Shown piece after piece: positions 1 through 43,635 of a stretch of DNA of 64,000 bases. The notes under the pieces are model-generated. The model had not been told where the DNA came from and ran no database searches. It saw nothing but the letters and a program-made list of their open reading frames with translations. The DNA lies in the sequence record PZ452578.1; one strand, given 5' to 3'. The translations under genes and the position numbers were made by a program. How positions within the stretch are numbered: the stretch's first letter is position 1; each line of letters opens with the position of its first letter. The stretch is from a phage.

Positions 1-32
1 ATTTCATTCTCCAAATCCGTATTAGTTGATAG

Positions 33-66
33 TTGTATAGTACCATGGAAGAACAGTCTTGTAAAC
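33..66 (-). promoter_or_regulatory. phage early (sigma70-type) promoter, PeSL-like repeat copy
   Basis: Minus strand reads GTTTAC (-35), about 17-nt spacer, TGgTACTAT (-10), with an A/T-rich upstream tract; near-identical copies at about 26.3k, 28.4k and 43.5k. Transcription would leave the window to the left. Confidence 0.6.
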
Positions 67-153
67 AGTTTTGTGAAAAATTTTTAGGGAATCCAAAGGG
101 TCCAGAATCATCTGTTTTTCATAAGTATAGATTTATATTACTTGTATGAAAAA

Positions 154-169
154 GGGACCCGGAGGTCCC
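154..169 (-). terminator. intrinsic terminator hairpin downstream of gene 43
   Basis: GGGACC-UCCG-GGUCCC stem-loop followed by a U5 tract on the minus-strand transcript, just past the gene 43 stop. Confidence 0.6.
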
Positions 170-182
170 TAGATTTATTCTA

Positions 183-2879
183 TCAGCCAAACAGGAAGTC
201 TAACGAAGCTTTTTCTTCATAGTCCATACCAGCCGATTCACACATGCCTGCAAGCGGTTTAACAAACGATTTTTGGAACAAAGTTGAGTAGTCAATCCAA
301 GACAGTACGTCAGAACGAATTTCTTTTGGAAGTTCTGTGCCCGACGGCCAAGCAATGCACTTGTCACCAAATGGATTTCCTTCACGCAATGGAAGAACCA
401 TTACTTTATTTCCATCCAAAATTGGAGCTACACCCAGACCACTAACAGCTCGACGATAAGTTAGCACACCGCGAATATGGAACGGACATTTAAATCCTGG
501 CCAACCTTTATCATCATATTTCGCTATATCGTTCGCAGTTTTTACTTCAGCAATAACTTTATAGTCAAGTTGACGATATTCTTTCTCAAAGTTCTTATAA
601 TATTCTTGAACAGACTCTTCGCCTTCTTGAAGAATACGACGGATACTTTCTTCAAGAGCTTCTTGGACCGCTTTAGGCGTTGAACTCTGCTGAGTTTCCA
701 TACCCATGATTTTTAGATGCGGTTCAGCAAATCGCTTATCTTCCATATCATAAACGTTCAGAGCATAACGTTTTTTCGCTTTCCAAAATCCACCAACACC
801 CTTTGAACCAAGCGGAGGGCAAGAAATAGCTTCACGGTCCATATGCATCAGATGCTCGCGGTTATTCATATAATCACATAACTCACGATATGCAACATCA
901 ATCATAGGTTCCATCTTTTTCTTACCGAACTGATTCATGAATTCAACTAAATCGTTCTGCTCTTTGAATCGGTCAAGACCAACTTTTTCAATAACTTTAT
1001 CTACACAAACATATACCGAATCAGTATCACCTGCTGCGATGAAATCTTCGCCATTAGTTCCGCATACTTTATTCAGATATTCATTAATTTTACGAGCAAT
1101 CCACTGAATACCAACTTGGCCGAAAATTGTGATAGCAGTAGCATTTCGCAAATCATAGTAACGAAAATGAATATTACCAAGAGCACCGTAAAGACTGTTA
1201 ATAAGAATTTTACGGTTCAGCTGATTTGTGTTAGCAAGTGTAGCTGCTTTTTCACATTCTTCAATCAAACTATTGAGAACAGATTCGGTGTAATTCGATA
1301 GTTCATTTAAGAAATCATCACTGAACTTAACATATCGTTCAACTTCAGGTTTAGTTGAACAAGACCCTGCGCCTTTCATAATAATCTTTTTAATAGCTTC
1401 GGCATTCATTTCTTCAGCGAACATTTTCTTTTTCCAATCTTTACGCTGGAAAAATACTTTAGCGATTTCCTTTGGAATGATACCTTCTTGATGCTTATCA
1501 TACATCCATCCATTCGGAGAACAAGAATATTCATCACTCGGTTTAGGAGCTGTTCCTGCGATATATTCATGAATTGGATGAACTTTAAATTGTCCACGAA
1601 TAGTCTCAGGACTAATGTTAACCTGGCGAATAATACTCGGATACAGAGACGTCAAGTCAAAACTCATAATGTATCGACGAGCAATTGGCTTAGGTTCAAA
1701 TACAAATGCACCCGGAAAACTCTGTTTAACATGCGAACCTTGTTGAGGAATAACCTTATGTTCACCTTTCAATGAGTTAAAAATAATAGCATCCCAAGTT
1801 TTAATAGGACTCATTACACCAGAAAAAGGCATTTTAGCGTAATAAGACATACTTAAAACTAGATCGATAAACCCGCGAATTTTATCAATTGCTTGAACTG
1901 ATTCTACGTCAATGATGTTATAACTAATGTATCGTTGATGATTAGTCTCACGAAGTTTATTAATAGGACCATCATACGGTAATTTACCTTTTTTGGTTTC
2001 ATGCTGAGCAACTGATTCCAAAGAGAATGACGGCAAATTAGTAAATGCGAATTTCTTATACAAATCTAAATAATCAAGAATAGATACGCCATCAATAGAA
2101 TAAATTTCTTTGCTACCGTACATATTTTGAATTAGTTTAGATTTTACTCGACCAATTGGAGAGAAGCGTTTCATACTACGTTCACCGAGAACCATTTTAA
2201 CGCGATTCATGATATACGGAACGTCAAATCCCTCAATATTCCAACCAGTAAAAATAGCAGGTCGTTTCTGTTCCCAAAGATTGATATATTCCATGAGCAT
2301 ATCACGCTCATTATCGAATGGCATATAAATTACTCGGTCAAGAATTTCTTGAGGAACTTCATCACCACCTTCACAGTCAAGCTTAGCAGCTAACTTTGCA
2401 TCCCATTTTGATACTGAACCGTACATTGAATTCAAAAGGTCGAAAACATAAAAACGATCATCAATTGAATCGTAATGAGTGATAGCATCAATTTCATATT
2501 CAGCTTTCATTGGGTCAGGAAATTTATCACCAGTAACCTCAATGTCACAGTTAGCTACACGAACAAATTTTCGGTCATAAACAATTTCTGAACCGTATGT
2601 ATCACTGATATAAGCGAGTTTAAAATCGTTCATACCGAGAGCTTCGAGACCGATGTCTTCCATTCGTTTCATCCAATCTCGAGCATCTTTCATTGATGGA
2701 AATTTTTGAGGAGCGCAGTTTTTACCATAAATGTCTTTGTACTTTGACTCTTCCTTACAATGCCTAAACATAGTTGGAAGATATTCTACTTCACGAGTAC
2801 GTTCCTTTCCGTTTTCATCAATATAACGTTCAACAATGTTATTTCCGACTGTTTCAATAGAGATATAAAATTCTTTCAT
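183..2879 (-). CDS. 43: DNA polymerase gp43 (family B, 3'-5' exonuclease plus polymerase)
   Basis: 898-aa ORF starting MKEFYISIETVGNN; exo motif CDIEV, polymerase motifs SLYPSII and GDTDS; size and sequence as I recall for T4 gp43. Confidence 0.97.
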   Translation of the reverse strand: MKEFYISIETVGNNIVERYIDENGKERTREVEYLPTMFRHCKEESKYKDIYGKNCAPQKFPSMKDARDWMKRMEDIGLEALGMNDFKLAYISDTYGSEIVYDRKFVRVANCDIEVTGDKFPDPMKAEYEIDAITHYDSIDDRFYVFDLLNSMYGSVSKWDAKLAAKLDCEGGDEVPQEILDRVIYMPFDNERDMLMEYINLWEQKRPAIFTGWNIEGFDVPYIMNRVKMVLGERSMKRFSPIGRVKSKLIQNMYGSKEIYSIDGVSILDYLDLYKKFAFTNLPSFSLESVAQHETKKGKLPYDGPINKLRETNHQRYISYNIIDVESVQAIDKIRGFIDLVLSMSYYAKMPFSGVMSPIKTWDAIIFNSLKGEHKVIPQQGSHVKQSFPGAFVFEPKPIARRYIMSFDLTSLYPSIIRQVNISPETIRGQFKVHPIHEYIAGTAPKPSDEYSCSPNGWMYDKHQEGIIPKEIAKVFFQRKDWKKKMFAEEMNAEAIKKIIMKGAGSCSTKPEVERYVKFSDDFLNELSNYTESVLNSLIEECEKAATLANTNQLNRKILINSLYGALGNIHFRYYDLRNATAITIFGQVGIQWIARKINEYLNKVCGTNGEDFIAAGDTDSVYVCVDKVIEKVGLDRFKEQNDLVEFMNQFGKKKMEPMIDVAYRELCDYMNNREHLMHMDREAISCPPLGSKGVGGFWKAKKRYALNVYDMEDKRFAEPHLKIMGMETQQSSTPKAVQEALEESIRRILQEGEESVQEYYKNFEKEYRQLDYKVIAEVKTANDIAKYDDKGWPGFKCPFHIRGVLTYRRAVSGLGVAPILDGNKVMVLPLREGNPFGDKCIAWPSGTELPKEIRSDVLSWIDYSTLFQKSFVKPLAGMCESAGMDYEEKASLDFLFG

Positions 2880-2920
2880 AGATATTCCTTAGTTTATAGC
2901 CCGAGTTATTAGGCTCTTGA
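2880..2920 (-). promoter_or_regulatory. gene 43 5' leader with translational operator-like hairpin
   Basis: Minus-strand leader AAGAGCCUAAUAACUCGGGCUAUAAACUAAGGAAUAUCU-AUG: 5-bp stem AGCCU/GGGCU, 8-nt loop, then SD AAGGA. Matches the architecture of the T4 gp43 autogenous repression site. Confidence 0.5.
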
Positions 2921-2939
2921 TATATTATACTCCAAATAA

Positions 2940-2954
2940 GGGGCCGAAGCCCCT
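2940..2954 (-). terminator. UUCG-tetraloop hairpin (terminator or RNA-stability element)
   Basis: GGGGC-UUCG-GCCCC on the minus-strand transcript between the small ORF and the gene 43 leader. Confidence 0.5.
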
Positions 2955-2957
2955 TGC

Positions 2958-3179
2958 TTAAATTAGTACTATTTGCCGGGTGAAAATTGTCAATCCATCT
3001 GCATTAATTGACTTAACGACTGCAGTAAAATGTTTTTGTTCTGGGTGAACTAATTTTTGAAATTCTACCTGAAATTTTAATTGGAGGTTTTCTGGTAAAT
3101 CAAAAAGTGTTTCTGTTGCAGAAAGATTATATTTTTCTTTAAGAGACGCCATGTATTCTTGCGGAGTTATAGCAGTCAT
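2958..3179 (-). CDS. hypothetical small protein between regA and gene 43
   Basis: 73 aa from the ATG one nt after the regA stop (MTAITPQEY...); ends just before the hairpin at 2940-2954. No recognisable motif. Confidence 0.4.
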   Translation of the reverse strand: MTAITPQEYMASLKEKYNLSATETLFDLPENLQLKFQVEFQKLVHPEQKHFTAVVKSINADGLTIFTRQIVLI

Positions 3180-3180
3180 A

Positions 3181-3549
3181 TTAATTACCAATCGTATATT
3201 TAGGAACGAGTTTCCATTCATGTTTTTGTTTAAAAGAAATAACTCGGAAGTTATTAGTTAAATCTTTCATAAAAGTTCTTTGACCAGGAACGATTTCAAT
3301 CAGTCCCCAATCTTCTAACAGCCATGCAATCGAATCACGACGAACTTCATCTTCTTCTGTCATTTCAACTTGACGGCCATCCATACGAAGCATTTCTTTA
3401 AAATGAACGATATAGTATAGTCCTTTTTTCTGAAGAATATGACAGGACTGATACAGAACTTTATCTTTATTATTAGCAATTCCCATACGAGTCAAAGTTT
3501 CTTTTACTTTCAGAAAATCTTCAGGTTTTTTAAGAGTAATTTCAATCAT
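3181..3549 (-). CDS. regA: translational repressor RegA
   Basis: 122-aa ORF MIEITLKKPEDFLKVKETLTRMG...; size and position (between 62 and 43) as in T4. Confidence 0.9.
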   Translation of the reverse strand: MIEITLKKPEDFLKVKETLTRMGIANNKDKVLYQSCHILQKKGLYYIVHFKEMLRMDGRQVEMTEEDEVRRDSIAWLLEDWGLIEIVPGQRTFMKDLTNNFRVISFKQKHEWKLVPKYTIGN

Positions 3550-3550
3550 T

Positions 3551-4114
3551 TTACCATTCCAATGCTAGTTTTTTGAGTTGTTTCTGTTCTTTTACGTTCT
3601 TAGTCACTTCTTTCAAAAAATCATCCGTGACTAAACCTTTTAGTTCTTTTAATACTAAAGGAAGTTTTCCATTTTTAGTAAGAATTGATTTATAGTTAAT
3701 TGCATCATTTGTGTTAACTTGATACCGCTTAGCAAGTAACTTAATAATCAATACTTCGGTGGAATCTTCAACCAGTTTTGCCCATTTACCATATCTTTTA
3801 CCACGAGGAACTGCAGCCATTAGATAATTAAAATGAGCTTCATCACTTAAACCTGATCCAATTAAATTCATAGCATATACAGCTGGCATGCACTCTGGAA
3901 ATTGTGATAATGCATTTTCAACCATGAATTTTGAATAATCTTTTTGAGCAATAGAGCATTTAGTTTTATTATTAATAGCTCCAATTATTTCAAAAAACTC
4001 ATTTTCAGCTTTTTCTTTAAAAGAATCAGCAGCGGATTGGACAGCTGTCCAATCTTTTGAATACCAAGCAACTTGATGCTCGTTTAATTGAATATCATCT
4101 TCAAATAAGCTCAT
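3551..4114 (-). CDS. 62: clamp loader small subunit gp62
   Basis: 187 aa from the internal start [14 protein letters not shown]; directly downstream of gene 44. Confidence 0.9.
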
Positions 4115-4115
4115 A

Positions 4116-5075: not shown

Positions 5076-5108
5076 AATTTCCTCATTCAAGTTTTAGTGT
5101 AAATTATA

Positions 5109-5124
5109 AAGGGCCGAAGCCCTT
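5109..5124 (-). terminator. UUCG-tetraloop hairpin between genes 45 and 44
   Basis: GGGC-UUCG-GCCC flanked by A/U on the minus-strand transcript. Confidence 0.45.
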
Positions 5125-5126
5125 TA

Positions 5127-6258: not shown

Positions 6259-6267
6259 AATACACCT

Positions 6268-6510: not shown

Positions 6511-7227
6511 ATGAATTATAAACTAATTTATGAAAAGTTAATCTCTAATGCTAAATCTCGAAAACTTGATTGCTATACTGAATCTCATCACATTATACCG
6601 CGCTGTTTAAATGGAAGTGATGATGCTTCAAACTTAGTAGATTTAACACCAGAAGAGCACTATGTAGCTCATCAACTTTTAGTAAAAATTTATCCTTCTG
6701 AACCAAAATTAGTCTATGCTGCTAACATGATGACAGTTTCTACGAAATACGCTAAACGCAACAATAAAACTTTCGGTTGGATTCGTCGTAAACTCTGGGA
6801 AATAGAAAAGAACAAAGAATTCTCCCAGGAGACACGAAAGAAAATGTCTGATGCAGTAGCTAATAAAGCAAGACTAACTTGTCCTCATTGCGGTAAGTCT
6901 GGATTAAGCGGGAATATGAATCGTTGGCATTTTGATAACTGCCCAAATCACCCTAATCCTAAAGTTAGACCACCAATGTCTAAAGAACACAGAAATAATA
7001 TCTCAAACGGGCTTAAAGCAATCGTTCTTGAAGAAACATCCTGCGAATTCTGCGGAATGATAGGCAAGAAATGCGTTATCGCAGCGCATAGAAATTTCTG
7101 CAAGAAAAATCCAAATGGACGCAAGAAAACTGAAAAGACTGGTACTTGCGTCCATTGCGGTAAAGTTACCACTTTCGGAAATTTATCAAGGTGGCATAAT
7201 GATAACTGTAAATATAAACCTAGCTAA
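6511..7227 (+). CDS. HNH homing endonuclease-like protein with three zinc-finger-like repeats
   Basis: 238 aa; N-terminal HNH signature ESHHIIPRCLNGSDDASNLVDLTPEEHYVAHQ; three C-terminal repeats of CxxCG...(R)WHxDNC. Plus strand, antisense to the surrounding early genes. Confidence 0.8.
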   Translation: MNYKLIYEKLISNAKSRKLDCYTESHHIIPRCLNGSDDASNLVDLTPEEHYVAHQLLVKIYPSEPKLVYAANMMTVSTKYAKRNNKTFGWIRRKLWEIEKNKEFSQETRKKMSDAVANKARLTCPHCGKSGLSGNMNRWHFDNCPNHPNPKVRPPMSKEHRNNISNGLKAIVLEETSCEFCGMIGKKCVIAAHRNFCKKNPNGRKKTEKTGTCVHCGKVTTFGNLSRWHNDNCKYKPS

Positions 7228-11150: not shown

Positions 11151-12351
11151 ATTTTGTAATAATGTCAAACTGTTCTTTAAAGCAGAAGCTTGAATCTTGA
11201 TGCTGATACAAAAATTCATAAGCTTTTTCGCGTTCACGGTCATAAAGAGTTCGGTTAGATGACAGTTCTTTAATACGTTCAAATGTTGATTCCATGTCAT
11301 TTTCATCAAACCAAATGATACCGCTATCATGCGAAGTCAAAGGAGTATTATCAACACGGAATTTTAAATTTTCGCCCGTAGATTTCCAAAATACCGGAAT
11401 TGTTCCACATGCACCAAGCTCGAGATGAGTATATTCTAAAGAACGTTGTAGATATTTTTTGTCCAACTTACTCAGCTGATAACCAAAACCGGATTTACTC
11501 ATACGTTCAAGCATTTCGCTATTTACATAACGGTCAAGAATTTGCGTTGGCAAATTAGGAGCAATTTTAATTTGGTCTACTTGATGAAGACGATAATACT
11601 CGTATGGAATTCCTTTTTCTTTAATAGGAATGAACGCTGGAGAACGTTCCAGACCTTCCATAATAGTACTTAGTCCTGCAGGTTTAAGATATTTTTCATG
11701 AAAATCAAACATCTGATAAAAACCTTTCCATGTAGTCGTACGACCAATCCAACGGTTGATATTCATGTTAATTTCAGAAACATCTTTCCAGTAGGTTGAC
11801 CGAACCTTCGCAATATCCATAGGAGGCTGAAAGTTATATACGGTCGGTGCTTCTTCAATATCATCAAACAGAGAAACTGTTTCAGGATACCATTCTTTCA
11901 TCAGAACTTTATTAAAATCGCCATTATCAGAATGACTAAAAATAACATCAGCTCGACGAACAGTTTCTTCTAATCCCAAATTTCGACGCAAAGAAAGAGA
12001 AGAATGGTCATGTTGATAAACTACAACACGAACAGAAGGTTTAATATTATCAATAATTTTTTTATAGTTATTAATGGTGTCTTCTTCTACTGAAGTAGCA
12101 GGAACTGAATTGATAATTAGAATATCACAATCATTTACCAGCTTAAGTGTTTTATCGTATTCTTTTGCCAATAAAACTGGAATTGAAAATGACTTATAAT
12201 CATGCGCGCAATTACGAGTAAATGATTTATCTTTAGCATAAACCAAAATTACTTCATGACCATTTTTAATAAACCAATCACGTTGCTCGAGTGAGAATTT
12301 TGTTACACCACAACCTTCAAGACCTCGAGCCATAAAAATACATACTTTCAT
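11149..12351 (-). CDS. agt: DNA alpha-glucosyltransferase
   Basis: 400-aa ORF MKVCIFMARGLEGCGVTKF...; size and position (after 47) as in T-even phages. Confidence 0.88.
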   Translation of the reverse strand: MKVCIFMARGLEGCGVTKFSLEQRDWFIKNGHEVILVYAKDKSFTRNCAHDYKSFSIPVLLAKEYDKTLKLVNDCDILIINSVPATSVEEDTINNYKKIIDNIKPSVRVVVYQHDHSSLSLRRNLGLEETVRRADVIFSHSDNGDFNKVLMKEWYPETVSLFDDIEEAPTVYNFQPPMDIAKVRSTYWKDVSEINMNINRWIGRTTTWKGFYQMFDFHEKYLKPAGLSTIMEGLERSPAFIPIKEKGIPYEYYRLHQVDQIKIAPNLPTQILDRYVNSEMLERMSKSGFGYQLSKLDKKYLQRSLEYTHLELGACGTIPVFWKSTGENLKFRVDNTPLTSHDSGIIWFDENDMESTFERIKELSSNRTLYDREREKAYEFLYQHQDSSFCFKEQFDIITK

Positions 12352-12402
12352 TTAATATCCTCATTGTTTTGGTTTATTTTACCAAAAATTTATAAAGCAA
12401 TA

Positions 12403-15592: not shown

Positions 15593-15620
15593 ATCAATTC
15601 CTCAAAGGCAATTCATGTGT

Positions 15621-15652
15621 TAATAATACCACAGTTTGAGCTCGTTGTAAAC
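15621..15652 (-). promoter_or_regulatory. phage early promoter
   Basis: Minus strand: GTTTAC (-35), spacer, TGgTATTAT (-10). Confidence 0.55.
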
Positions 15653-15733
15653 AACTTTGTGAAAATTATTTTAAGGAATGATAAGAAGTGAACGATAGCT
15701 TAGAATGGTAATATACAGAATGTGAGAAAGAAA

Positions 15734-16389: not shown

Positions 16390-16860
16390 TTAATCATGTT
16401 TCCACACCCCATCGGTATTTGACCAAAGTCGCTGATTATCTGATCCTCGCCACAGCTTTTTGGTCGGAAGATTTTTCTCATACTTCCCATCAATAATAAC
16501 ATCAACATATTTAAGCATTTCTAGTTGTTTAATATCTTCAAACTTGTACCCTGTCCACAACCAAATGCTTTTATTTGGATAAAGATTTTTTACTGTTTGA
16601 ACAATGCAATGAACAACATCTCGGTTATCAGGATAAAGAGGGTCACCTCCGGTTATAGTTAATCCTTCTATATAATCATTATTCAAACATTCAATTAATT
16701 GTTCTAGTGTTTCACCGGTGAATGGAATACCATTTCTAGCATTCCATGTTGATTTATTATAACACCCTTCGCATTTATGCAAACAACCTGTAACGAAAAG
16801 AACGACCCTGCAACCAGGGCCATTCACAAAATCGCAAGGATAAAATCTATCATAATTCAT
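16390..16860 (-). CDS. nrdG: anaerobic ribonucleotide reductase activase NrdG (radical SAM)
   Basis: 156 aa; CxxxCxxC-type cluster region (GCLHKCEGCYN) and NrdG-like N-terminus. Confidence 0.9.
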   Translation of the reverse strand: MNYDRFYPCDFVNGPGCRVVLFVTGCLHKCEGCYNKSTWNARNGIPFTGETLEQLIECLNNDYIEGLTITGGDPLYPDNRDVVHCIVQTVKNLYPNKSIWLWTGYKFEDIKQLEMLKYVDVIIDGKYEKNLPTKKLWRGSDNQRLWSNTDGVWKHD

Positions 16861-18674
16861 TGGTGTTTAACCCTATGCATGATTTCTTTATTTTTGCCAA
16901 GATTAAATCCGCGCTCGTTCGGATTTCCCAAATAGCCGCATGTTCTTCTTATGGTGTTCATCTTTTTAGGATCAGTTTCTCCACAAATAGAACAAACAAA
17001 TCCGTTTTCAGTAGGAGTCATTTCATGGGTACTTCCGCATGTAAAACATTTATCTACTGGCATATTAACACCAAAATAATCTAAATGTTGTGCAGCATAA
17101 TCCCATACGGCCTCAAGGCCTTTTAAGTTATTTTTCATATCAGGAAGTTCAACATAAGAAATGTGACCACCTGTCGCAATGAAATGATATGGCGCTTCAC
17201 GAGAAATCTTTTCAAACGGAGTAATATTTTCTTCTACTGAAACATGGAAACTGTTAGTGTACCAACCTTTATCGGTAACATCTTTTACGCTTCCATATTT
17301 TTCTGTATCGAGTTTACAGAAGCGATAACAAAGGTTTTCAGCAGGAGTCGAATATAAACTAAAAGCAAATCCAGTTCTTTCAGTCCACTGTTTAAGATGA
17401 GCATTCATTTTAGTTAAAATTTCCTGTCCAATATCACGACCGACAAGAATATTCAATTCATGAATACCAATGTATCCTAGGGACACTGAACTTCTACCGT
17501 TTTTAAATAACTCAATTATGTCGTCATCAGGTTTAAGACGAACCCCGAATGCACCTTCTTGGTAAAGAATAGGAGCAACAGTAGCTTTAACTCCTTTTAA
17601 GGAACTAATTCTACACATCAAAGCTTCAAAACACAAATCCATACGTTCATTGAATAATTCAACAAATTTCTGTTCGTTAAATTGTGTTCCAATATAAGAA
17701 TCTAATGCAATGCGAGGAAGATTCAGTGTTACAACACCAAGATTATTACGTCCATCAAGAATTTCATTACCAGTCGAATCTTTCCATACGCTCAAGAAAC
17801 TACGGCATCCCATCGGAGAAACAGGAATAGATGAACCAGTGATAGCTTTATTGTTCTTAGCTGAAATAATATCAGGATACATCCTTTTGCTTGCACACTC
17901 TAAAGCAAGCTGCTTAATATCATAGTTCGGATCGTCTTTATAAAGATTAACACCTTCTTCAACAAACATAACAAGCTTAGGGAAAATAGGAGTTATCCCA
18001 TCACGACCAAGACCTTTAATACGATTTTTCAGAATTGCTTTCTGAATCATTCGTTCAGTCCAGTCAGTTCCCGTACCAAATGTAATTGTTACAAAAGGCG
18101 TTTGTCCGTTTGAACTAAAGAGAGTATTTACTTCATATTCATAAGCTTGAAATGCATCGTATACGTCTTTTTCTGTTTTAGATTGAGCATAATTCAACGC
18201 ATCGGCGATTTGCCATTTTTCTGCATCCTCAATATGTTTTGCATAGGTGCGTTTAACATAAGGAGAAAGTACTTTATCTACATTCGCAAAAGTCGTTCCG
18301 CCGTATTGGTGAGAAGCAACTTGCGCAGTAATTTGTGCCATAATTGCAGTAGCAACTCCAATTGATTTAGGAGTTTCAATCTGTGCATTACCTAGCTTAA
18401 ATCCGTTTTCAAGCATTCCTTTTAAATCTACTAAACAACAATTAGTAAATGGAAGAGCAGGGGAATAATCAATATCATGGAAATGAATAATTCCGCTTTC
18501 ATGCGCTTTCATAATAAAAGACGGGACCATATTTTTGGCAATGTGTTTAGACACAATACCAGCCATAAGGTCCCGTTGAGTTGGAAAAACACGAGAATCT
18601 TTATTAGCATTCTCGTTTAAAAGGTCTTTATTAGTTTTATGAATCAATCCTTCAATTTCTTTTTCAATTGTCAT
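16857..18674 (-). CDS. nrdD: anaerobic ribonucleoside-triphosphate reductase NrdD
   Basis: 605 aa, uninterrupted; C-terminal zinc ribbon (CFTCG...CSICG) and glycyl-radical motif RTCGYLG. Confidence 0.95.
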   Translation of the reverse strand: MTIEKEIEGLIHKTNKDLLNENANKDSRVFPTQRDLMAGIVSKHIAKNMVPSFIMKAHESGIIHFHDIDYSPALPFTNCCLVDLKGMLENGFKLGNAQIETPKSIGVATAIMAQITAQVASHQYGGTTFANVDKVLSPYVKRTYAKHIEDAEKWQIADALNYAQSKTEKDVYDAFQAYEYEVNTLFSSNGQTPFVTITFGTGTDWTERMIQKAILKNRIKGLGRDGITPIFPKLVMFVEEGVNLYKDDPNYDIKQLALECASKRMYPDIISAKNNKAITGSSIPVSPMGCRSFLSVWKDSTGNEILDGRNNLGVVTLNLPRIALDSYIGTQFNEQKFVELFNERMDLCFEALMCRISSLKGVKATVAPILYQEGAFGVRLKPDDDIIELFKNGRSSVSLGYIGIHELNILVGRDIGQEILTKMNAHLKQWTERTGFAFSLYSTPAENLCYRFCKLDTEKYGSVKDVTDKGWYTNSFHVSVEENITPFEKISREAPYHFIATGGHISYVELPDMKNNLKGLEAVWDYAAQHLDYFGVNMPVDKCFTCGSTHEMTPTENGFVCSICGETDPKKMNTIRRTCGYLGNPNERGFNLGKNKEIMHRVKHQ

Positions 18675-25741: not shown

Positions 25742-26269
25742 TTATGCGAGTACCGTCTTTAACCGTTCTTCAAACTTCCGAAGAGTATTCTGGCGTTCAG
25801 CTCTTTGCTTTTTGTAAGTTTCAATACGCTCTGAAATGAGAGTGTATCGTTCATTTACTGATTCTTTCATAAAATCAGGAATTTCACGAGAAGCTTTAAT
25901 CTCGTCAAATTTATCAATAACAGCTTGCTCTTCAGCAATTAAGTTATCATACATCAAAATATCTTTCTTGATGAACTCAATATCTTCTTGAGTTACACGA
26001 GATAACTTAGATGCTTTATCCTTTTTGTACTGTTCGTTAGTATCACGAGACCAGTGTAATGCACGATTTTTATTCGTATTTTTGTAAATTTCTACAATAC
26101 CAATCTCATCAATAATAACGATCCAATTCCAACGGGATTTGTAAATCTGCCCTCCATCAACCGTAATTTCACCTCCGATTGAGATGTCATTAAAGAACTT
26201 GCTTTGTGCTTCTGATTTAAATTTACCATCGTTGTAATTTACCAGGTTGAAAATATCTTTAGCGTTCAT
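25742..26269 (-). CDS. hypothetical protein
   Basis: Start set at MNAKDIF, downstream of the PeSL promoter. Confidence 0.6.
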   Translation of the reverse strand: MNAKDIFNLVNYNDGKFKSEAQSKFFNDISIGGEITVDGGQIYKSRWNWIVIIDEIGIVEIYKNTNKNRALHWSRDTNEQYKKDKASKLSRVTQEDIEFIKKDILMYDNLIAEEQAVIDKFDEIKASREIPDFMKESVNERYTLISERIETYKKQRAERQNTLRKFEERLKTVLA

Positions 26270-26295
26270 TTTGTGTTCCTCCGTAGTTGATAGTT

Positions 26296-26326
26296 GTATA
26301 GTACCACAGAGGAACGGTCTTGTAAA
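26296..26326 (-). promoter_or_regulatory. phage early promoter, PeSL-like repeat copy
   Basis: Same element as at 33-66: GTTTAC, spacer, TGgTACTATACAACTATCAACTAC. Confidence 0.6.
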
Positions 26327-26329
26327 CAA

Positions 26330-26644
26330 CTAAAAGAAACTTCTTTCACAATTTTTTCCACTGAACCAAGCGCTCACTGCTTTCTTAGTCTCAGGAGCAG
26401 TGTTATCCATAAACCATTCAAAGGCAGCCTTTTTATGATTCTGGAGGGCTTCTCGGGCTTTAATCTGCTCACGGTCTATTAACACTAACATATGAGCCTT
26501 TCTTGTCACCATGGGCTTCTTATGATTTTTTGAATACTCCCAATCATTTGTCCATCGCATCGTTGTTGCGAATTGAAGTACAGCTTCTTTAATTTTAGTT
26601 TCGTAAATTTCACGAGCCTTTGAGTATAACATCATTACCTCCAT
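26330..26644 (-). CDS. hypothetical protein
   Basis: 104-aa ORF whose 3' end overlaps the downstream promoter repeat. Confidence 0.5.
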   Translation of the reverse strand: MEVMMLYSKAREIYETKIKEAVLQFATTMRWTNDWEYSKNHKKPMVTRKAHMLVLIDREQIKAREALQNHKKAAFEWFMDNTAPETKKAVSAWFSGKNCERSFF

Positions 26645-26714: not shown

Positions 26715-27434
26715 TTACGATTCTTCTAAATGTCTTTTCTGAAAAGTTGATACCATACTACGATAAGGTTCATTTGGATACCCGTGTTTTATAGCTTCCT
26801 TTGTAAATTTTCTCCATCCGTATTTAGTTTCTTTCCAAAGCTCGAATAATTCATCTTCATACTGCCATATAGTTAAATGAGAACGCTTTGCAGCTTTAAT
26901 TCCATTAATGTGCTTTTCTTTTACTGTAGGATTGCTTAGTGTCTTTTTAATAATATTACTAACTTTTCTAACAAAAGCTGGGTCCTTATATCGTTGTGAA
27001 GTTTTTATTGAAGTGTTTAATTTAGCTTCCGGCGTGGATGTGACCTCTTTCATCTTTTTCTTCATATGCTCTATATGATTAGGATTTTTCCATAAATTTA
27101 TAGAATGCTTTTTACATTTTATCCTAGTTTCATCTGCAACCTTTCCTCCTTCACCCCCATATGACAGGTTAACGCAGTTTTTTCCATATTTCAATTTACC
27201 TGCCATGATATATAATATTTCGGCTTGTACCATTTTATCATAATTATCAAAAACTTCTAAAACCGTTTTTGATAATATATGGTCATTTGACACTTTTACA
27301 CGTTCTATATAATTTCCACTACCAACATACGAATCATTGATGTTATTAGTTATATGTCGACCATAATAGTATTTCTTAATACCTGTCTTTAAATTTAATA
27401 TTTCAGTTTTATAGATAGTAAAATATTTTTTCAT
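26715..27434 (-). CDS. hypothetical protein, possible degenerate GIY-YIG-like nuclease module
   Basis: 239 aa; N-terminal FTIYKTEILNLKTGIKKYYYGRH resembles GIY-x-YIG-R; basic C-terminal half. Weak assignment. Confidence 0.4.
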   Translation of the reverse strand: MKKYFTIYKTEILNLKTGIKKYYYGRHITNNINDSYVGSGNYIERVKVSNDHILSKTVLEVFDNYDKMVQAEILYIMAGKLKYGKNCVNLSYGGEGGKVADETRIKCKKHSINLWKNPNHIEHMKKKMKEVTSTPEAKLNTSIKTSQRYKDPAFVRKVSNIIKKTLSNPTVKEKHINGIKAAKRSHLTIWQYEDELFELWKETKYGWRKFTKEAIKHGYPNEPYRSMVSTFQKRHLEES

Positions 27435-28399
27435 TTTAATAATACCGTTTCAGCGATTTCTTCCCAACCGTTTTTGTCGGTCATAATAAAGTCAGCAAGA
27501 TAAAGAGCAGTACGCAGTGAAACATTACGTAAACGATTAACATTGACTTTCATCCATGATAATGCTTTATAAGTTTCTTCATCAGAAAGACCGCGTTTTT
27601 GCATCATGTCAGTTGAAAGAATAACATCTTCAACCCTGACCATAATTTCTTCATTAGTGTGAACACCCAAATCTAAATAAACTGAGCGGGACACTAATGC
27701 TTGTAAATGTGGAGCAAGTTTAGTACCACGGTCTAATTCACGGTCAATGTCAACGTTTGTGATAAAAACAATTGTTCCTTTAAATTCAAACTCACGGTCA
27801 ATGCCTTTTTCTTCTAAGTAAGAAGATGCAGTGCTCCAGCAGACTTTACGGGTCTCTCCAGTGTCCAGAGCAGCTTTCAGAAGATTAAGAATGTCCATAT
27901 CAGAGAAAACATCCACATCATCAATCAAAAGGACAGAATTCTCTTCACGATTATTCCAAAGCTGTTCATAAAGACCGATACCAGAGATTTTACCATTAAT
28001 GCTTTTATACTCAATGTATCCAATATCATTTGCTTTATTTAAAGCTTTATCTAAAGAATACGTTTTACCAATGCCTGCCGCACCAGAGATAATTAATGAA
28101 CGAATGTTTCCGTTAATAATACCATTCGTCATCATTCCCATAACATTAAATCTTTTATTAATGCGGGTTTTCATATCTTCATATGATTCTTTAACTTCTT
28201 CAACTTTTACACCATCATATGAAATGTCTGATTTGTAAACCCAAACACCGCGACGCTTACCGTCAATTTCAACAAAAACTTTACCATCTCCTTGTGCATC
28301 TACCGGAGCATTATCAGGGAACCACTCACCTAAGAGTTCAAAAGTTCCAGAGATTTCTTTACCGAAGTAGATACCCTTATTGATAGTTACAGTTTTCAT
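27431..28399 (-). CDS. P-loop NTPase (AAA-like ATPase)
   Basis: 323 aa from MKTVTINKG; Walker A GAAGIGKT, Walker B VLLIDDVD. Confidence 0.7.
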   Translation of the reverse strand: MKTVTINKGIYFGKEISGTFELLGEWFPDNAPVDAQGDGKVFVEIDGKRRGVWVYKSDISYDGVKVEEVKESYEDMKTRINKRFNVMGMMTNGIINGNIRSLIISGAAGIGKTYSLDKALNKANDIGYIEYKSINGKISGIGLYEQLWNNREENSVLLIDDVDVFSDMDILNLLKAALDTGETRKVCWSTASSYLEEKGIDREFEFKGTIVFITNVDIDRELDRGTKLAPHLQALVSRSVYLDLGVHTNEEIMVRVEDVILSTDMMQKRGLSDEETYKALSWMKVNVNRLRNVSLRTALYLADFIMTDKNGWEEIAETVLLK

Positions 28400-28432
28400 T
28401 TTATTCTCCAAATCTGTATCAGTAGTTGATAG

Positions 28433-28466
28433 TTGTATAGTACCATAAAGCTTTATGCTTGTAAAC
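28433..28466 (-). promoter_or_regulatory. phage early promoter, PeSL-like repeat copy
   Basis: GTTTAC (-35), spacer, TGgTACTATACAACTATCAACTAC (-10 region); A-rich upstream element. Confidence 0.6.
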
Positions 28467-28495
28467 AGTTTTGTGAAAAAATTTTGAAATAAAAA

Positions 28496-28513
28496 GGGAG
28501 CCCGAAGGCTCCC
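28496..28513 (-). terminator. intrinsic terminator hairpin
   Basis: GGGAGCC-UUCG-GGCUCCC plus U-tract on the minus-strand transcript, directly after the stop of ORF 28516..29529 and before the promoter. Confidence 0.55.
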
Positions 28514-28515
28514 TA

Positions 28516-31075: not shown

Positions 31076-31208
31076 AATTACATACTCCTTTGAATAATAT
31101 CAATAATGTTGTTCACCAGATTATAAGTAAACATTGGGTAATTATATTGAATCATTACATACACAACAAACAAAACTTTCATTCTCTTCTCCTTGACAGT
31201 TGACAAGA

Positions 31209-31240
31209 TTACTATACCATAACCTTGCCAACTTGTAAAC
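31209..31240 (-). promoter_or_regulatory. phage early promoter
   Basis: Minus strand: GTTTAC (-35), spacer, TGgTATAGT (-10). Confidence 0.55.
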
Positions 31241-35921: not shown

Positions 35922-36383
35922 TCATTGAGTTTTAATTACTGCTTTAGAAGCCTTTCCTGGTAAACGACGACTATTGATAATTGCCATCCTGCACTGAAGT
36001 GACGGGTCTTTGAACTTCGCATTAGGTTTACAAACTGTAAATCCAAGCCAAAGATTTCCATCTGTGATTTCTAGACGCCCAGGACGATATTCAACCCCAT
36101 CAATAAAATCCTCGTCAATGTCAGGACGCGGAGGCATACTCAGGAATTCATTAACTTCTAAAACATGGTCTTTTATTTTATGGAATAATTCAAAAACGTA
36201 TGTCTCATCAATCTCCCGTTGAATTGCGCGATCAAGAAGATGTTGAGAATATTTTAGATGAAACGATGAGACCCCTGCTGCTTTTGATGCCTCACGAATC
36301 TCATTGTTAATTTGACGAAACTCCGACTCAAAGTGACGACGAAGCTTATTTCGACGGATAAAAACTTCTGTATTGATAGTCAT
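35922..36383 (-). CDS. regB: endoribonuclease RegB
   Basis: 153-aa ORF MTINTEVFIRRNKLRRHFESEF...; size and position as in T4. Confidence 0.85.
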   Translation of the reverse strand: MTINTEVFIRRNKLRRHFESEFRQINNEIREASKAAGVSSFHLKYSQHLLDRAIQREIDETYVFELFHKIKDHVLEVNEFLSMPPRPDIDEDFIDGVEYRPGRLEITDGNLWLGFTVCKPNAKFKDPSLQCRMAIINSRRLPGKASKAVIKTQ

Positions 36384-36410
36384 GTTATTCTCCTCTTAAC
36401 TGATAGAAAA

Positions 36411-36440
36411 ATTATACCACAGTCAAGAGGAAAAGTAAAC
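36411..36440 (-). promoter_or_regulatory. phage early promoter upstream of regB
   Basis: Minus strand: GTTTAC (-35), 15-nt spacer, TGgTATAAT (-10). Confidence 0.65.
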
Positions 36441-37563: not shown

Positions 37564-37570
37564 ATAAACC

Positions 37571-38436: not shown

Positions 38437-38576
38437 TTCTTCTCTCTAAATTTGGGCCATTCCGTGGCGCATGAATTGTCCATTTCTGTATTTACCCATT
38501 ACCGCGCTTGGGCTCGACCTTATTACAGGTTGGCGGGAATCCCTCACAAAATCATGAGGTCCAGGTTGTTCCCATG

Positions 38577-39050
38577 TTATTTGAATGATTTAACGTACTG
38601 AATAGAACCTTTACTATTCACAAAGGCAATTTTACCATTTTTGTTATACATGGTAGCAGTACGTTGATAGCCATAAGTTTGTTTACCAGATTGATAACCA
38701 ACTAATGCGAAATTATCTTCACCCATTTTATTCTGTTTAGCGCGAATACGTTCATGGCCATGTGCCATAAGAACCTTAGCATCACCAGTTGCAATGGATC
38801 TACGAGTTTTTTCATCTTCAACTGTATTAACAAAGTCGTCAAATGAATCAAATTTAGCATGAGATTTATTATACAGTTTTCCATCTACTGCATAATTATA
38901 TCCTTGTACATCCATCTCAACTTCTGTACCATCATCCAGTACAGCAGTGATTTTCTGTCCTTTTTTAAATTTCAAAAGATCAGTAAAAGATTCAGCAATA
39001 ATTTGAGAATTAATAGCTGCTTCAGTAATAAATTCTTGATAGGTTTTCAT
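38577..39050 (-). CDS. internal-protein-like head cargo protein with capsid targeting sequence
   Basis: 157 aa; N-terminus MKTYQEFITE matches the T4 internal-protein CTS consensus MKTYQEFIAE (prohead protease site L/I-x-E). Confidence 0.7.
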   Translation of the reverse strand: MKTYQEFITEAAINSQIIAESFTDLLKFKKGQKITAVLDDGTEVEMDVQGYNYAVDGKLYNKSHAKFDSFDDFVNTVEDEKTRRSIATGDAKVLMAHGHERIRAKQNKMGEDNFALVGYQSGKQTYGYQRTATMYNKNGKIAFVNSKGSIQYVKSFK

Positions 39051-39066
39051 GTGTTTCCTTTAATTT

Positions 39067-39384
39067 TTATTCTTTAGGGAAGTTTTTAGAATATGCATCA
39101 TAAAGCTTATTTCCAATACGGCGGAAAACTCTAGCCGCAAAACGATTTTCTGGGTTTTTAATCATGATTTGCATCATATAAGTACCCGCGTCAGAAAGAG
39201 CTTCTTCATAGTACCCGTTAATTTCTTTAAGAGTCCTACGTTTACCACCAGGACCATCAACAGTGATTTTCCATTTACCTGTAGAAGTACGACTTGGCGG
39301 CTCAACTTGTTCAATCCAGATATAACCGCCTTCTACACGTTGTCCTGCAGCAGATTCTGCAATAAATTCTTGATATGTTTTCAT
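39067..39384 (-). CDS. internal-protein-like head cargo protein with capsid targeting sequence
   Basis: 105 aa; N-terminus MKTYQEFIAE identical to the CTS consensus; basic body. Confidence 0.7.
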   Translation of the reverse strand: MKTYQEFIAESAAGQRVEGGYIWIEQVEPPSRTSTGKWKITVDGPGGKRRTLKEINGYYEEALSDAGTYMMQIMIKNPENRFAARVFRRIGNKLYDAYSKNFPKE

Positions 39385-39437
39385 GTGTTTCCTTTAAATA
39401 TTTTAATTAGTATAATTTATCTATTTAAGTAACTGTG

Positions 39438-39470
39438 AATATACTATCACAATTCCAAGAGAAAGTAAAC
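39438..39470 (-). promoter_or_regulatory. phage early promoter upstream of the internal-protein genes
   Basis: Minus strand: GTTTAC (-35), spacer, TGaTAGTAT (-10). Confidence 0.5.
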
Positions 39471-39474
39471 AGCT

Positions 39475-40443
<969 letters not shown>

Positions 40444-40462
<19 letters not shown>

Positions 40463-40932
40463 TCAGTGATAAAGTTATTTAAATTTTGAGTATATTTCTT
40501 TTCATCAAAAATCTTTTGCTGTCTGCGTAACCGCCATGGCATTTCAATGAACACGCACCATATTCCAGATAATATTGCTGCTGTCAAAATATTAACAAGC
40601 ATAATTAAAAGAATCCAATCTCCTGTTCTGCCTATTGGACTTTCTCCAAAGAAGCAAAATACGAATGATGACACAGGAAGACTAATGATATACCACAGAA
40701 TCATAATCTTATTTGTAAACCAATCAGCATTTGTTAACTTAGCGCGACCGTTTTGAATACATACGAACTTATCATCTGTTATAGTAGATGGCTTAGCTGC
40801 TTGATATCCCATTCTAAACTCCCTAATTAACAAATTTTTCATATCTTCGGAACAACCATTCCAGTCAACTCTATCAACTGAAATGCCATCATCCCCATCA
40901 TCTAAATCATACCAGCGAGTTTTTAAAATCAT
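40444..40932 (-). CDS. hypothetical membrane protein
   Basis: 162 aa with two hydrophobic helices. Confidence 0.55.
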
Positions 40933-41291
40933 CTGATTTTCCTACAATCACTCACAAACTCTTCCATTGATTCTTTTTCAATATAAGACATGTAGCTATT
41001 ATATTCCTTTAATTGTATTTTGTAATCCTTTTTTCTTTGCCAATTTATTTTAAAATTATCATAATGAAAATATAACACGGTACCAAAGAATGAAAATAAT
41101 GAAATCGCTATAGTAAAACGAAGTTCACTCCAAACCTCTGTTATAATTACTGTGCCGTCGATATTTAAAATAAAACAGTCAATTAACAATCCAATAAGAC
41201 TACCTGCAAGAGCTGCAAATGCTGATACGGCAAGAATTAATAGTGCCTCTGGAAACGAATATTTAACTTTATTTAGTTTTGGCTTTTGCAT
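40929..41291 (-). CDS. hypothetical membrane protein
   Basis: 120 aa with two hydrophobic helices. Confidence 0.55.
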   Translation of the reverse strand: MQKPKLNKVKYSFPEALLILAVSAFAALAGSLIGLLIDCFILNIDGTVIITEVWSELRFTIAISLFSFFGTVLYFHYDNFKINWQRKKDYKIQLKEYNSYMSYIEKESMEEFVSDCRKIR

Positions 41292-41686
41292 CGTGATTCC
41301 TTAACAAATTTCATAATTTCATCAAATTCATACATATCTAGTTTAAGCTGATGTTCCTTTTTAATCTTTTTACACTGCGCTTTCCAATCACGTACGCGTT
41401 TACGATAATGTCTTCCTTGATACCAGTATCCTACCCAATTTACGGGTACTAATAAAAGCGGAACTACCAATGGAAGAATTAGTGTTGCTCCAAATATTAC
41501 ACCAGATTCAATATCAGTCATAACGTCTATAATCATTCCAGCAATCAGCAGAATCACAAATGATACAGCTACCACAGGACCTATTAACACATCAGTAGAA
41601 ATTATCTGACGCTTTAATTCATACTTCAACGGTTTACTTGGAAGGTATAGTGATGGTTTTGACATATTCTCTACATTCCTTAACAA
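41273..41686 (-). CDS. hypothetical membrane protein
   Basis: 137 aa with two hydrophobic helices. Confidence 0.55.
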   Translation of the reverse strand: MLRNVENMSKPSLYLPSKPLKYELKRQIISTDVLIGPVVAVSFVILLIAGMIIDVMTDIESGVIFGATLILPLVVPLLLVPVNWVGYWYQGRHYRKRVRDWKAQCKKIKKEHQLKLDMYEFDEIMKFVKESRCKSQN

Positions 41687-42242
41687 ATTTTTCTAATAAT
41701 AAATCGCTTTCAAAATTGGGATTTTCTACGAATTTATCAAAAAGATCATCAACAATAGTTAAGATATTCTTTTTACTAAGAATACGTTTATTTTCATGCT
41801 TCGTTTCAGAATCAACTATAAGAGTAAAGAAATATTTCTTGCCCTGAAATTTTACAGTAGTATCAATATAGAATAAATTTGACTTTTGTAAATTACGTTT
41901 AAACCATGCATCACTTAAACTATAAACGCCAAGATAATCATAATCGTCGTTTAAATAACAGACCGTCCATTCAGGAGAAACAAAATCAGTAAATTCAACG
42001 TCAAAATCGCATGTTAATAAATGAATTGATTCAATACTGTTAATAAGTATTCCAGGACGTATTAAAGACTTTTTACCTCTAGAAAATCTTCCAGAAAGAC
42101 TTTCATCAGTTTCATATGAAGAACCCCAATAATAATTACGTCCTTCTGCCATACGTTTAAGAGCATTTAGTAATTGGTCTGGAACATCAACCTGTCTTTG
42201 GAACTCTTCAAACATTGAATTGAAATCACTTTGCATTTTCAT
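41634..42242 (-). CDS. hypothetical protein
   Basis: 202-aa ORF. Confidence 0.55.
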   Translation of the reverse strand: MKMQSDFNSMFEEFQRQVDVPDQLLNALKRMAEGRNYYWGSSYETDESLSGRFSRGKKSLIRPGILINSIESIHLLTCDFDVEFTDFVSPEWTVCYLNDDYDYLGVYSLSDAWFKRNLQKSNLFYIDTTVKFQGKKYFFTLIVDSETKHENKRILSKKNILTIVDDLFDKFVENPNFESDLLLEKFVKECREYVKTITIPSK

Positions 42243-42262
42243 TCCTATTTACTCCAAGTAAT

Positions 42263-42278
42263 AGGGGCCGAAGCCCCT
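42263..42278 (-). terminator. UUCG-tetraloop hairpin
   Basis: AGGGGC-UUCG-GCCCCU on the minus-strand transcript between ORFs. Confidence 0.5.
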
Positions 42279-42283
42279 TATCA

Positions 42284-42877
42284 TTATTTCAGAGAATTAA
42301 TGTATTCCTGAACATCGGCAGAGGTAGTTTCAACCCCAGAAATATTGCCATTAAATGTTTCAACTCGGGCAAGAGTATCTTCAATATCAACCTTAGTCAG
42401 CGCTGCAATTTCAACTACATCATCAGCAGTACTAATTCCAAGTGCATTCGCTGCACGAGTTTCACGGATATATTCCAATTTAACTGCAAGTTCTTGGCGA
42501 GCATCATCTAACTCAACTACTTTCTTAGCGATTTCAATTCGCATTTCAGCATACCCATCAGCTTTAGTAGTCAGCTGTTCAGCTGTTCGACGATATAGCA
42601 AACCGAGTTTAGCATGCATTGTTACATCTTGACCTTCGGAAAGAAGCTTGCGAATTTCACGCTCTTTTGATTCAGCCTGTTTATTCTTTTCAATAACAAG
42701 TTCACGAATACGTTTTTCTTCATTAATAGATTTAACAGAAGCAGTTTTTAGATCTTTAATTTTATCAAGTAGTTTTGCTGCTGCAGCAGTATACTGTTCT
42801 TCAACAGATAGATTTTTAGCCATAGCAGAACCAAGTTTAGTGCGAATAAACTCAACAATTTTCTTCAGTGTGTTCAT
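42284..42877 (-). CDS. hypothetical coiled-coil protein
   Basis: 197 aa, predominantly helical with heptad character. Confidence 0.6.
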
Positions 42878-42917
42878 AGTATTTCCTTAGGTTAATTAAG
42901 ATTTAAAATCCATGAGA

Positions 42918-42944
42918 GTATTATACTCCGGATAGTTTGTAAAC
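42918..42944 (-). promoter_or_regulatory. phage early promoter
   Basis: Minus strand: GTTTAC (-35), spacer, GAGTATAAT (-10). Confidence 0.55.
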
Positions 42945-43165
42945 TATTTCAACATCGCCTTTTGCTGCTTTATAACCTTCAGCCCAAGATACAACCGAGT
43001 TTTTATCTGAAGATTCAAATTCTGGCATTGGGCTTTCGCCAATGTTCACGCAGTATGTTTCTTCATTTTCGTCGAACCAAATAATTAAAGTAGTCATTTA
43101 TTTCTCCGTTTCTGTATTTGTTTTGATAAGTCTATAATAACACCGTCCTTGGTGTTTGTATACAA

Positions 43166-43441
43166 TTATTTCATATTATTGAAATATTCTTCAGCAATTT
43201 CATCATTATCATGATAAACTTTAGAAGACAGTTTAACATAACCTTCTGCCGTGAACATGTTAATCACAACCTTTACAGTATACCACTGACCGTCTTCATT
43301 ACCCATTACTGCATAAGTTTCAAACATCGGATGGTCAGGACCGATAACTTTAATATCATTCACCGTACGACCAAAATCTTCTGAAACACATTTCATAAAG
43401 AAGTTGAACAGTTCACCGTAATTATCCATTTCATTCTCCAA
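43166..43441 (-). CDS. hypothetical protein
   Basis: 91-aa ORF about 25 nt downstream of the PeSL promoter start site. Confidence 0.55.
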   Translation of the reverse strand: MENEMDNYGELFNFFMKCVSEDFGRTVNDIKVIGPDHPMFETYAVMGNEDGQWYTVKVVINMFTAEGYVKLSSKVYHDNDEIAEEYFNNMK

Positions 43442-43467
43442 GTTGTTTTCTGTATCAGCAGTTGATA

Positions 43468-43502
43468 GTTGTATAGTACCATGGAAGAACAGGGATGTAA
43501 AC
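43468..43502 (-). promoter_or_regulatory. phage early promoter, PeSL-like repeat copy
   Basis: Same ~60-bp element as at 33-66, 26296-26326 and 28433-28466. Confidence 0.6.
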
Positions 43503-43635
43503 AGTTTTGTGAAAAAATTTTTAAAAAGTTTTAGGGAATTCTAGGGTCAGGAGGGGCAATTAAAAGGTAGGATAATATATTATAAAGGGTATAAACTAAA
43601 TGATGCCTAGAGAGGCCCGAAAAGGCCTAGATACC

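Follow-up and report, generated by a model that had tools for sequence, protein, structure and literature searches.

What is repeated at the four places in a 64,000-nt stretch of phage DNA (PZ452578.1, hereafter the window) where the same promoter-like sequence recurs, and does it serve to express the adjoining genes or to shuffle blocks of them? A sequence-only reading of the window had described four near-identical repeats of about 60 bp, taken both for early promoters and for substrates of homologous recombination. The window is a segment of a Tequatrovirus (T4-like coliphage): a megablast search with three segments returned top records that are 96-98% identical, and positions 27012-89960 of T4 (AF158101) are collinear with the window, in the same orientation and with 91-99% identity by block. 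Comparison of the four copies with each other and with their counterparts in T4 and related phages indicates that each repeat is very probably an immediate-early expression cassette of a T4-type phage.

The core of the repeat is the 22-mer AGTTGATAGTTGTATAGTACCA, which has four exact matches in the window, all on the plus strand (24-45, 26285-26306, 28424-28445 and 43460-43481), vs an expectation of zero from 100 dinucleotide-preserving shuffles. The four copies, numbered here in this order, are direct repeats on one strand, and the repeats as such are confirmed, with the earlier coordinates only 3-6 nt off. Their description as near-identical over about 60 bp was overstated: the core is exact, but over 62 nt the identity to copy 1 is 79% for copy 2, 84% for copy 3 and 94% for copy 4, and local alignments of copy against copy span 45-112 nt at 71-91% identity, with longest exact blocks of 22-33 nt. 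The similarity is patchy, and the 17-bp spacer between -35 and -10 differs copy by copy. Likewise, a second block quoted as common to all repeats, TGTAAACAGTTTTGTGAAAAA, is found unchanged in copies 1, 3 and 4, but copy 2 reads cttgtaaacaactaaaagaaac at this place. An Rfam scan of the window returned ten tRNAs only and no match at the repeats.

Read on the minus strand, all four copies contain TTTACA-17-TACTAT with a TG before the -10 (TGgTACTAT) and the full -35 block GTTTACA, and each adjoins the 5' side of a minus-strand gene start. The -10 is followed in constant order by the invariant ACAACTATCAACT, a short leader, GGAG and the ATG, the latter located 20-35 nt past the predicted transcription start, which would be the A seven bases past the -10 hexamer. 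GTTTAC at -36 to -31 is the T4 early promoter consensus (Nolan et al. 2006, PMC1524935), and T4 early promoters combine UP, -35, TGn and -10 elements with additional consensus regions (Hinton 2010, PMC2988021). In middle promoters a MotA box, (a/t)(a/t)TGCTT(t/c)A, centred at -30, replaces the -35 element (PMC1524935); a MotA-dependent middle promoter was considered and rejected for the repeats, as they have GTTTACA in the -35 region and spacers free of TGCTT. The genes served by the four copies fall in PHROG families of unknown function.

The same sites are found in T4, which holds the identical 22-mer directly 5' of imm.1, nrdC.8, nrdC.10 and e.8, the orthologs of the four genes (Table 1), and two extra exact cores at 163631 (5' of motA) and 167044 (5' of ndd.6), i.e., six in total. 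T4 near-copies are located at 6588, 146833 and 166765, among others, and all copies lie on the same strand. A strict scan of T4, using the pattern (G/T)TT(T/G)AC, 18 nt, TAnnnT and an AT-rich region upstream, identified 32 GTTTAC-type sites on the early-transcribed strand, in which TACTAT is the commonest -10 (13 of 32) and 'ctatcaa' is shared after the -10; a similar scan of the window yielded ten convincing minus-strand sites. Moreover, the 95-nt unit of copy 4 used as query matched 546 phage records at 3909 places, usually eight and mostly 7-9 per genome, and the genomes listed for it are T4-like with approximately 165-170 kb. The ortholog of copy 4 is annotated as 'predicted early promoter' in the RefSeq record of Yersinia phage fPS-2; the AF158101 record contains coding-sequence, RNA and origin features only and thus no annotated promoters to compare. 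Together, the presence of -35 and -10 with TG at four of four copies, their location 5' of gene starts and their orthology to GTTTAC-type T4 early sites uphold the promoter part of the sequence-only reading.

The repeated unit extends to both sides of the promoter elements. We scanned the window for the UP consensus (Estrem et al.) joined at the proper distance to GTTTAC, allowing up to three mismatches, and obtained six matches vs 0.34 expected, among them copies 4, 3 and 1 with one, two and three mismatches, respectively, so the A-rich UP element proposed for the repeats is retained for these three. On the downstream side, a strong RegB/S1 cleavage consensus, GG*AGRAYARAA, is given for ribosome-binding sites of T4 early mRNA by Durand et al. 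2006, as reported in the review of Uzan & Miller 2010 (PMC3014915). Copy 3 matches GGAGRAYARAA at 11 of 11 positions, copies 1 and 4 at 10 of 11 and copy 2 at 8 of 11, and in the window both exact matches (2/2) and five of the 13 one-mismatch matches sit just downstream of early-type promoters. With the unit reaching into a RegB-type ribosome-binding site, what repeats appears to be a whole early expression cassette beyond the promoter alone, switched on fast and off fast: host sigma-70 RNA polymerase would fire the cassettes right after DNA injection, and RegB would cleave the ribosome-binding site some minutes later, thereby silencing the cassette messages.

Several points weigh against this assignment. 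A generic sigma-70 scan rates the four sites only 9/12, a score that occurs 15 times vs 9.9 expected, and no T4 start-site map for these sites turned up in literature searches. Copy 2 has no UP match within three mismatches, and the UP element claimed for the repeats falls away here. Matches to the RegB consensus in the whole window number 15 vs 11.6 expected, which is not above chance. In addition, the invariance of the 22-mer among the 20 IMG/VR loci compared below is partly by construction, as these loci were retrieved with the exact 22-mer. Because matches of equal sigma-70 score are common in AT-rich DNA, the case is built on family conservation and orthology and not on the sigma-70 scan; for RegB, it is the placement of the matches at promoters, not their number, that is telling.

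Terminator hairpins had been described as usually adjoining the repeats, which holds for copies 1, 3 and 4 at the distances given in Table 1 but not for copy 2, which has no upstream terminator hairpin since this copy runs into the 3' end of the preceding open reading frame (ORF). This bears on the comparison with promoter-early stem-loop (PeSL) cassettes (Arbiol et al. 2010, PMC2839356; Comeau et al. 2014, PMC4122927), a label that the earlier reading had extended to all four copies: it suits copy 3, in which hairpin, T-tract/UP and promoter are contiguous, applies loosely to copies 1 and 4, and does not apply to copy 2. The composite of hairpin and promoter in copy 3 is found again in T4, 5' of motA and 5' of frd.3. 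The spacer of copy 3 furthermore includes a perfect 14-nt palindrome, CATAAAGCTTTATG (28446-28459), which is common to the promoter upstream of frd.3 in T4 (T4 146875).

Table 1 Positions of the early-promoter cassettes, their predicted elements and associated hairpins in the window.
Feature	Position	Strand	Details
Copy 1, putative early-promoter cassette 5' of imm.1 ortholog	2..86	-	ortholog T4 27038; UP-like tract 86->67; GTTTAC 66->61; TGgTACTAT 45->37; predicted +1 near A30; ribosome-binding site GGAGAATGAAA 12->2; imm.1 start codon straddles left window edge
Copy 2, putative early promoter 5' of nrdC.8 ortholog	26267..26346	-	ortholog T4 53901; GTTTAC 26327->26322; TACTAT 26303->26298; predicted +1 near 26291; GGAGG 26282->26278; ATG 26269; overlaps stop (3' end) of upstream nrdC.9 ortholog, ORF end 26330
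Copy 3, putative early-promoter cassette 5' of nrdC.10 ortholog	28397..28486	-	ortholog T4 55342; UP 28486->28467; GTTTAC 28466->28461; TACTAT 28442->28437; predicted +1 near 28430; ribosome-binding site GGAGAATAAAA 28409->28399; ATG 28399
Copy 4, putative early-promoter cassette 5' of e.8 ortholog	43427..43545	-	ortholog T4 70654; UP 43522->43503; GTTTAC 43502->43497; TACTAT 43478->43473; predicted +1 near 43466; ribosome-binding site GGAGAATGAAA 43439->43429; ATG 43429
Terminator-like hairpin after gene 43	153..170	-	88 nt upstream of copy-1 -35 hexamer
Terminator hairpin	28495..28514	-	30 nt from copy-3 -35; T-tract runs into UP element
Terminator hairpin	43640..43663	-	139 nt upstream of copy-4 -35; duplicated at 44195-44218
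Copy-2 hairpin (predicted)	26275..26315	-	5' arm 26315->26303 (spacer and start of -10); 3' arm 26287->26275 (leader and GGAGG)
Weaker early-promoter family member	15610..15671	-	GTTTACA-17-TGgTATTAT
Weaker family member 5' of trna.4 ortholog (T4 73329-73514), ipI region	46840..46901	-	exact RegB-consensus ribosome-binding site 46824-46834
Weaker family member 5' of ipI-type gene starting 47192 (MKTFKEF...)	47213..47271	-	strong predicted hairpin across -10

The family in the window is larger than the four copies, as three weaker members had been overlooked by the sequence-only reading (starting at 15610, 46840 and 47213, Table 1). To see how the copies are related, we compared the spacers of the window, T4 and the 20 IMG/VR loci. 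Each locus keeps a spacer of its own from phage to phage, with gcataaagctttatgg always at nrdC.10 and gaccgttcctctgtgg at nrdC.8, indicating that the copies mostly evolve as independent orthologous lineages and are not homogenised. Similarity reaches beyond the promoter: copies 1 and 4 are homologous over approximately 125 nt, upstream to about -65 and downstream into the leader, and the T4 copies 27038 and 167044 share the first four codons too, ATGAAAATCGCT. At the copy-1 locus, two of the IMG/VR loci (L012 and L019) have the copy-4-type spacer block ATCCC, where T4 and the window have AAGAC. Taken together, the copies are best understood as old paralogs of one promoter family, presumably under strong selection and at fixed syntenic sites, between which short-tract exchange seems to occur occasionally.

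Among the alternatives, the one that survives best is that the repeats act first of all as mobile regulatory linkers (PeSLs), kept alike by frequent recombination and driving excision, mini-circle insertion and swapping. PeSL mini-circles have been demonstrated in RB49/phi1 (PMC2839356, PMC4122927), and PeSLs of the form TTTACW-N17-TAYWAT have been reported for the PST/T4 pair (PMC4122927). Linkers would also account for the flanks without obvious promoter role within the homology of copies 1 and 4, for the copy-4-type allele at the copy-1 locus, for the two further occurrences of the copy-3 composite in T4 (motA and frd.3), and for the stem-loop upstream of copy 4, which is duplicated around a variable gene cassette. 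Here, 36-nt direct repeats (43631-43666 and 44186-44221, repeat family D11), each with a terminator hairpin, flank a gene absent from T4, and the insert upstream of copy 4 measures 0 bp in T4, about 520 bp in the window and about 1215 bp in other relatives. The gene between the 36-nt repeats is a minus-strand ORF of 157 aa (43671-44144) with the N-terminus MKSYAQFLNEA, which we take to resemble an internal-protein capsid-targeting sequence.

Two small indels that abut units of the family also speak for linkers. In four IMG/VR loci (L011, L012, L014 and L019), an extra ORF of about 234 bp (approximately 75 aa, beginning MKIVMGCLAVCL...) separates the copy-1 promoter from imm.1. T4 and phage L003 have no such ORF, and the window, with its edge in the imm.1 start codon, does not reach this spot. 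At the T4 167044 copy, the second indel is an ORF of about 226 bp. Both indels join at the 3' end of the repeat, i.e., at the ribosome-binding site/ATG, and fit the published PeSL picture on a small scale. Their junctions, however, share only ATGAAA(AT) microhomology (ATGAAAAT at the copy-1 indels), and the copy-1 indels have no second flanking promoter copy, which counts against linkers.

On a larger scale, the orientation of the repeats already limits what recombination could do. Inversion between copies, which had been proposed, is ruled out: all are direct repeats, between which a cross-over could only delete or duplicate the intervening DNA. With the gene order of T4, a cross-over between copies 1 and 2 deletes genes 43, 44, 45, 46, 47 and 55, and one between copies 3 and 4 deletes gene e, all of which are essential or required in T4 genetics. 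The sole plausible excision among the four copies is the one between copies 2 and 3, and a synthetic query for its deletion junction matched 712 phage records, in none of which (0/712) one place covers the junction. Excision or swapping of the large blocks between the four copies is hence unsupported. In T4, about 50 bp are cited for efficient recombination (Singer 1982, as cited in PMC2839356), above the 22-33 bp of exact homology available here, and dispersed direct repeats with no more homology than this would serve for deletions or duplications rarely at most. What stands of the proposed role as recombination substrate is small-scale exchange, suggested by the spacer allele and the ORF indels of about 230 bp; inversion and large-block excision do not stand.

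None of the four promoter cores (0/4) is a breakpoint relative to T4, and the location in variable regions that the earlier reading gave for the repeats describes copy 4 best, copies 1-3 lying in blocks collinear with T4. Six window-versus-T4 indels correspond to homing-endonuclease genes or introns and not to the repeats: the window is without T4 mobB, mobC, I-TevII, segB and segC and has a seg-like ORF at 26715-27434. Owing to the insertion of this ORF, the spacing between copies 2 and 3 is 2139 nt vs 1441 nt in T4. Together with the syntenic positions, the stable copy number, the locus-specific spacers and the unmatched copy 2/copy 3 junction, this makes the mobile-linker explanation possible but doubtful, and we favour old paralogous cassettes with occasional short-tract exchange.

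As side observations on these indels, one third of all window indels relative to T4 are homing-endonuclease-associated. The items missing relative to T4 are mobB, mobC, the nrdD intron with I-TevII, segB, and segC with 5.3 (at window positions 12339-12367, 16840-16860, 18136-18139, 44538-44853 and 53514-53519), and the ORF at 26715-27434, inserted between the nrdC.9 and nrdC.10 orthologs, encodes a homing-endonuclease-like protein of 239 aa (phrog_314).

Considerably less probable is pure convergence, in which unrelated sequences would each have been optimised for the strongest promoter with neither descent nor exchange. Selection on T4 early promoters for polymerase capture is indeed strong (PMC2988021), and the shared core is near the family consensus; yet TACTAT, identical in all copies, has only four of the six bases of the sigma-70 optimum, the homology exceeds the promoter elements into the leader and to about -65, and the units at T4 27038 and 167044 share their first four codons. 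Furthermore, the two spacer alleles at the copy-1 locus are separated by four linked substitutions, and one of them is the copy-4 state. A functionless chance or low-complexity repeat, for which only the AT-richness of the window and the frequency of short two-copy repeats in it could be put forward, is refuted for practical purposes by the shuffles and by the orthologous sites kept in T4 and hundreds of genomes.

RNA folding offers a candidate explanation for the differences between the copy-specific spacers. Folded from -35 to ATG, copy 2 forms a 13-bp helix in which the spacer pairs with the leader including GGAGG (dG -19.4, z -4.1), and the loop holds the start site and what is left of the -10; copies 1, 3 and 4, folded over the same interval, are no more structured than their shuffles (z +0.3 to +0.8). 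We also considered a small leader hairpin, TATCA/TGATA, but dropped it because it is not conserved from copy to copy. The window promoters at 31240, 36440 and 47253 fold as well (z -3.7 to -4.8). A spacer complementary to its own start region, leader or ribosome-binding site is found on the minus strand at 26275-26315, 31165-31240, 36365-36440, 46810-46882 and 47180-47253, and the loop then takes up the -10 partly or entirely.

In T4, z falls below -2.5 at 13 of the 28 strictly defined early promoters; the spacer pairs with downstream sequence in 12 of these 13, and the 3' arm takes in the ribosome-binding site in at least seven. All 13 hairpins are stabler on the sense than on the antisense strand (mean -20.6 vs -13.5 kcal/mol), with 36 G-U among 217 pairs, a bias that points to structure at the RNA and not at the DNA level. 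Comparison of the nrdC.8 locus in Tequatrovirus, Mosigvirus and Dhakavirus shows no change in the -35, the -10 or CTATCAACTAC, and the spacer and ribosome-binding-site arms vary between genera yet stay complementary, with covariation in the Dhakavirus orthologs. The nrdC.8 orthologs of WG01 (-19.3, z -4.3), MX01 (-17.6, z -3.0) and DCP2 (-23.8, z -5.6) fold comparably, and that of RB69 is weaker (-13.6, z -1.6). Counted for the -10-spanning hairpins in general over orthologs of close relatives, 17 changed pairs are kept and nine are broken, mostly at one divergent locus and from too few substitutions to weigh for or against pairing.

As the 5' arm lies upstream of the predicted start, the helix could form only in read-through transcripts. 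The spacers may therefore not be neutral: in read-through RNA the 5' arm would mask the ribosome-binding site and hide its GGAG from RegB, transcripts from the local promoter would remain open, and this promoter-in-hairpin logic might extend to the early class genome-wide. We put this forward as a long shot, which is more probably wrong than right. For translational masking by a hairpin with a promoter inside, the review PMC3014915 names T4 e, soc, 49 and I-TevI only, and no description of such a design for early promoters was found in the accessible literature, a search that did not extend to the older T4 literature. If functional and previously undescribed, hairpins spanning the -10 could explain the copy-specific spacers and would provide a testable rule for which of the transcripts from a polycistronic early region are translated.

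Some further features of the window were recorded besides the repeats. Repeat family D3 (39015-39068, 39349-39402 and 47157-47210) consists of gene starts encoding MKTYQEFITE, MKTYQEFIAE and MKTFKEFTST, the conserved targeting peptides at the N-termini of internal head proteins, and the segment 38573-39345 is replaced relative to T4 ipII/ipIII. Terminator-like hairpins with GGGCCGAAGCCC (families D4 and D5) are located at 2937, 5107, 11132, 14768 and 42261, two of them identical over 22 nt, and recall the GGGC/GCCC motifs at T4 deletion endpoints (PMC2839356). Ten tRNA genes (Rfam) lie within 44538-45362 vs eight annotated in T4, with the one at 44699-44778 barely above threshold.

T4 early (Pe) promoters have been catalogued for decades, reportedly by Liebig & Rueger in 1989, Wilkens & Rueger in 1996 and Miller et al. 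in 2003, and the recombination-linker idea was published for the T4/PST pair in 2014. Early promoters of T4, RegB-sensitive early ribosome-binding sites and PeSLs in the T4/PST pair are thus all already known. For the four copies studied here, the direct orientation, the exact homology of at most 33 bp, the lack of a natural copy 2/copy 3 deletion and the stable number now set limits on recombination.

Compared with PeSLs, the cassettes share the AT-rich tract, the sigma-70-like early promoter, the ribosome-binding site, the ATG and, at copies 1, 3 and 4, a stem-loop at varying distance upstream, and small ORF indels adjoin such units in close relatives. They differ in that stem-loop and promoter are contiguous in copy 3 only, that copy 2 has no stem-loop, and that no deletion between neighbouring copies was seen in the 712 records. 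Relative to the masking at e, soc, 49 and I-TevI, the predicted helix of copy 2 is alike in having its 5' arm upstream of the start, so that only local transcripts would escape; there, however, late or middle promoters split early from late expression, whereas the promoter embedded in copy 2 would itself be early. Strong RegB/S1 sites are predicted from the complete consensus at copy 3 and the near-complete one at copies 1 and 4, in contrast to copy 2, which falls short of it and whose GGAG lies in the predicted helix of long transcripts. With T4 early (Pe) promoters, finally, the four copies have in common the GTTTAC -35, the 17-bp spacing, TGn with a TAnnnT -10 and, in copies 1, 3 and 4, an A/T-rich UP-like region, as well as the orientation along the early-transcribed strand 5' of early genes, and they are orthologs of T4 sites. 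There is no essential difference between the two, and the four copies belong to a subset in which start region and leader are common as well and which has six exact cores in T4.

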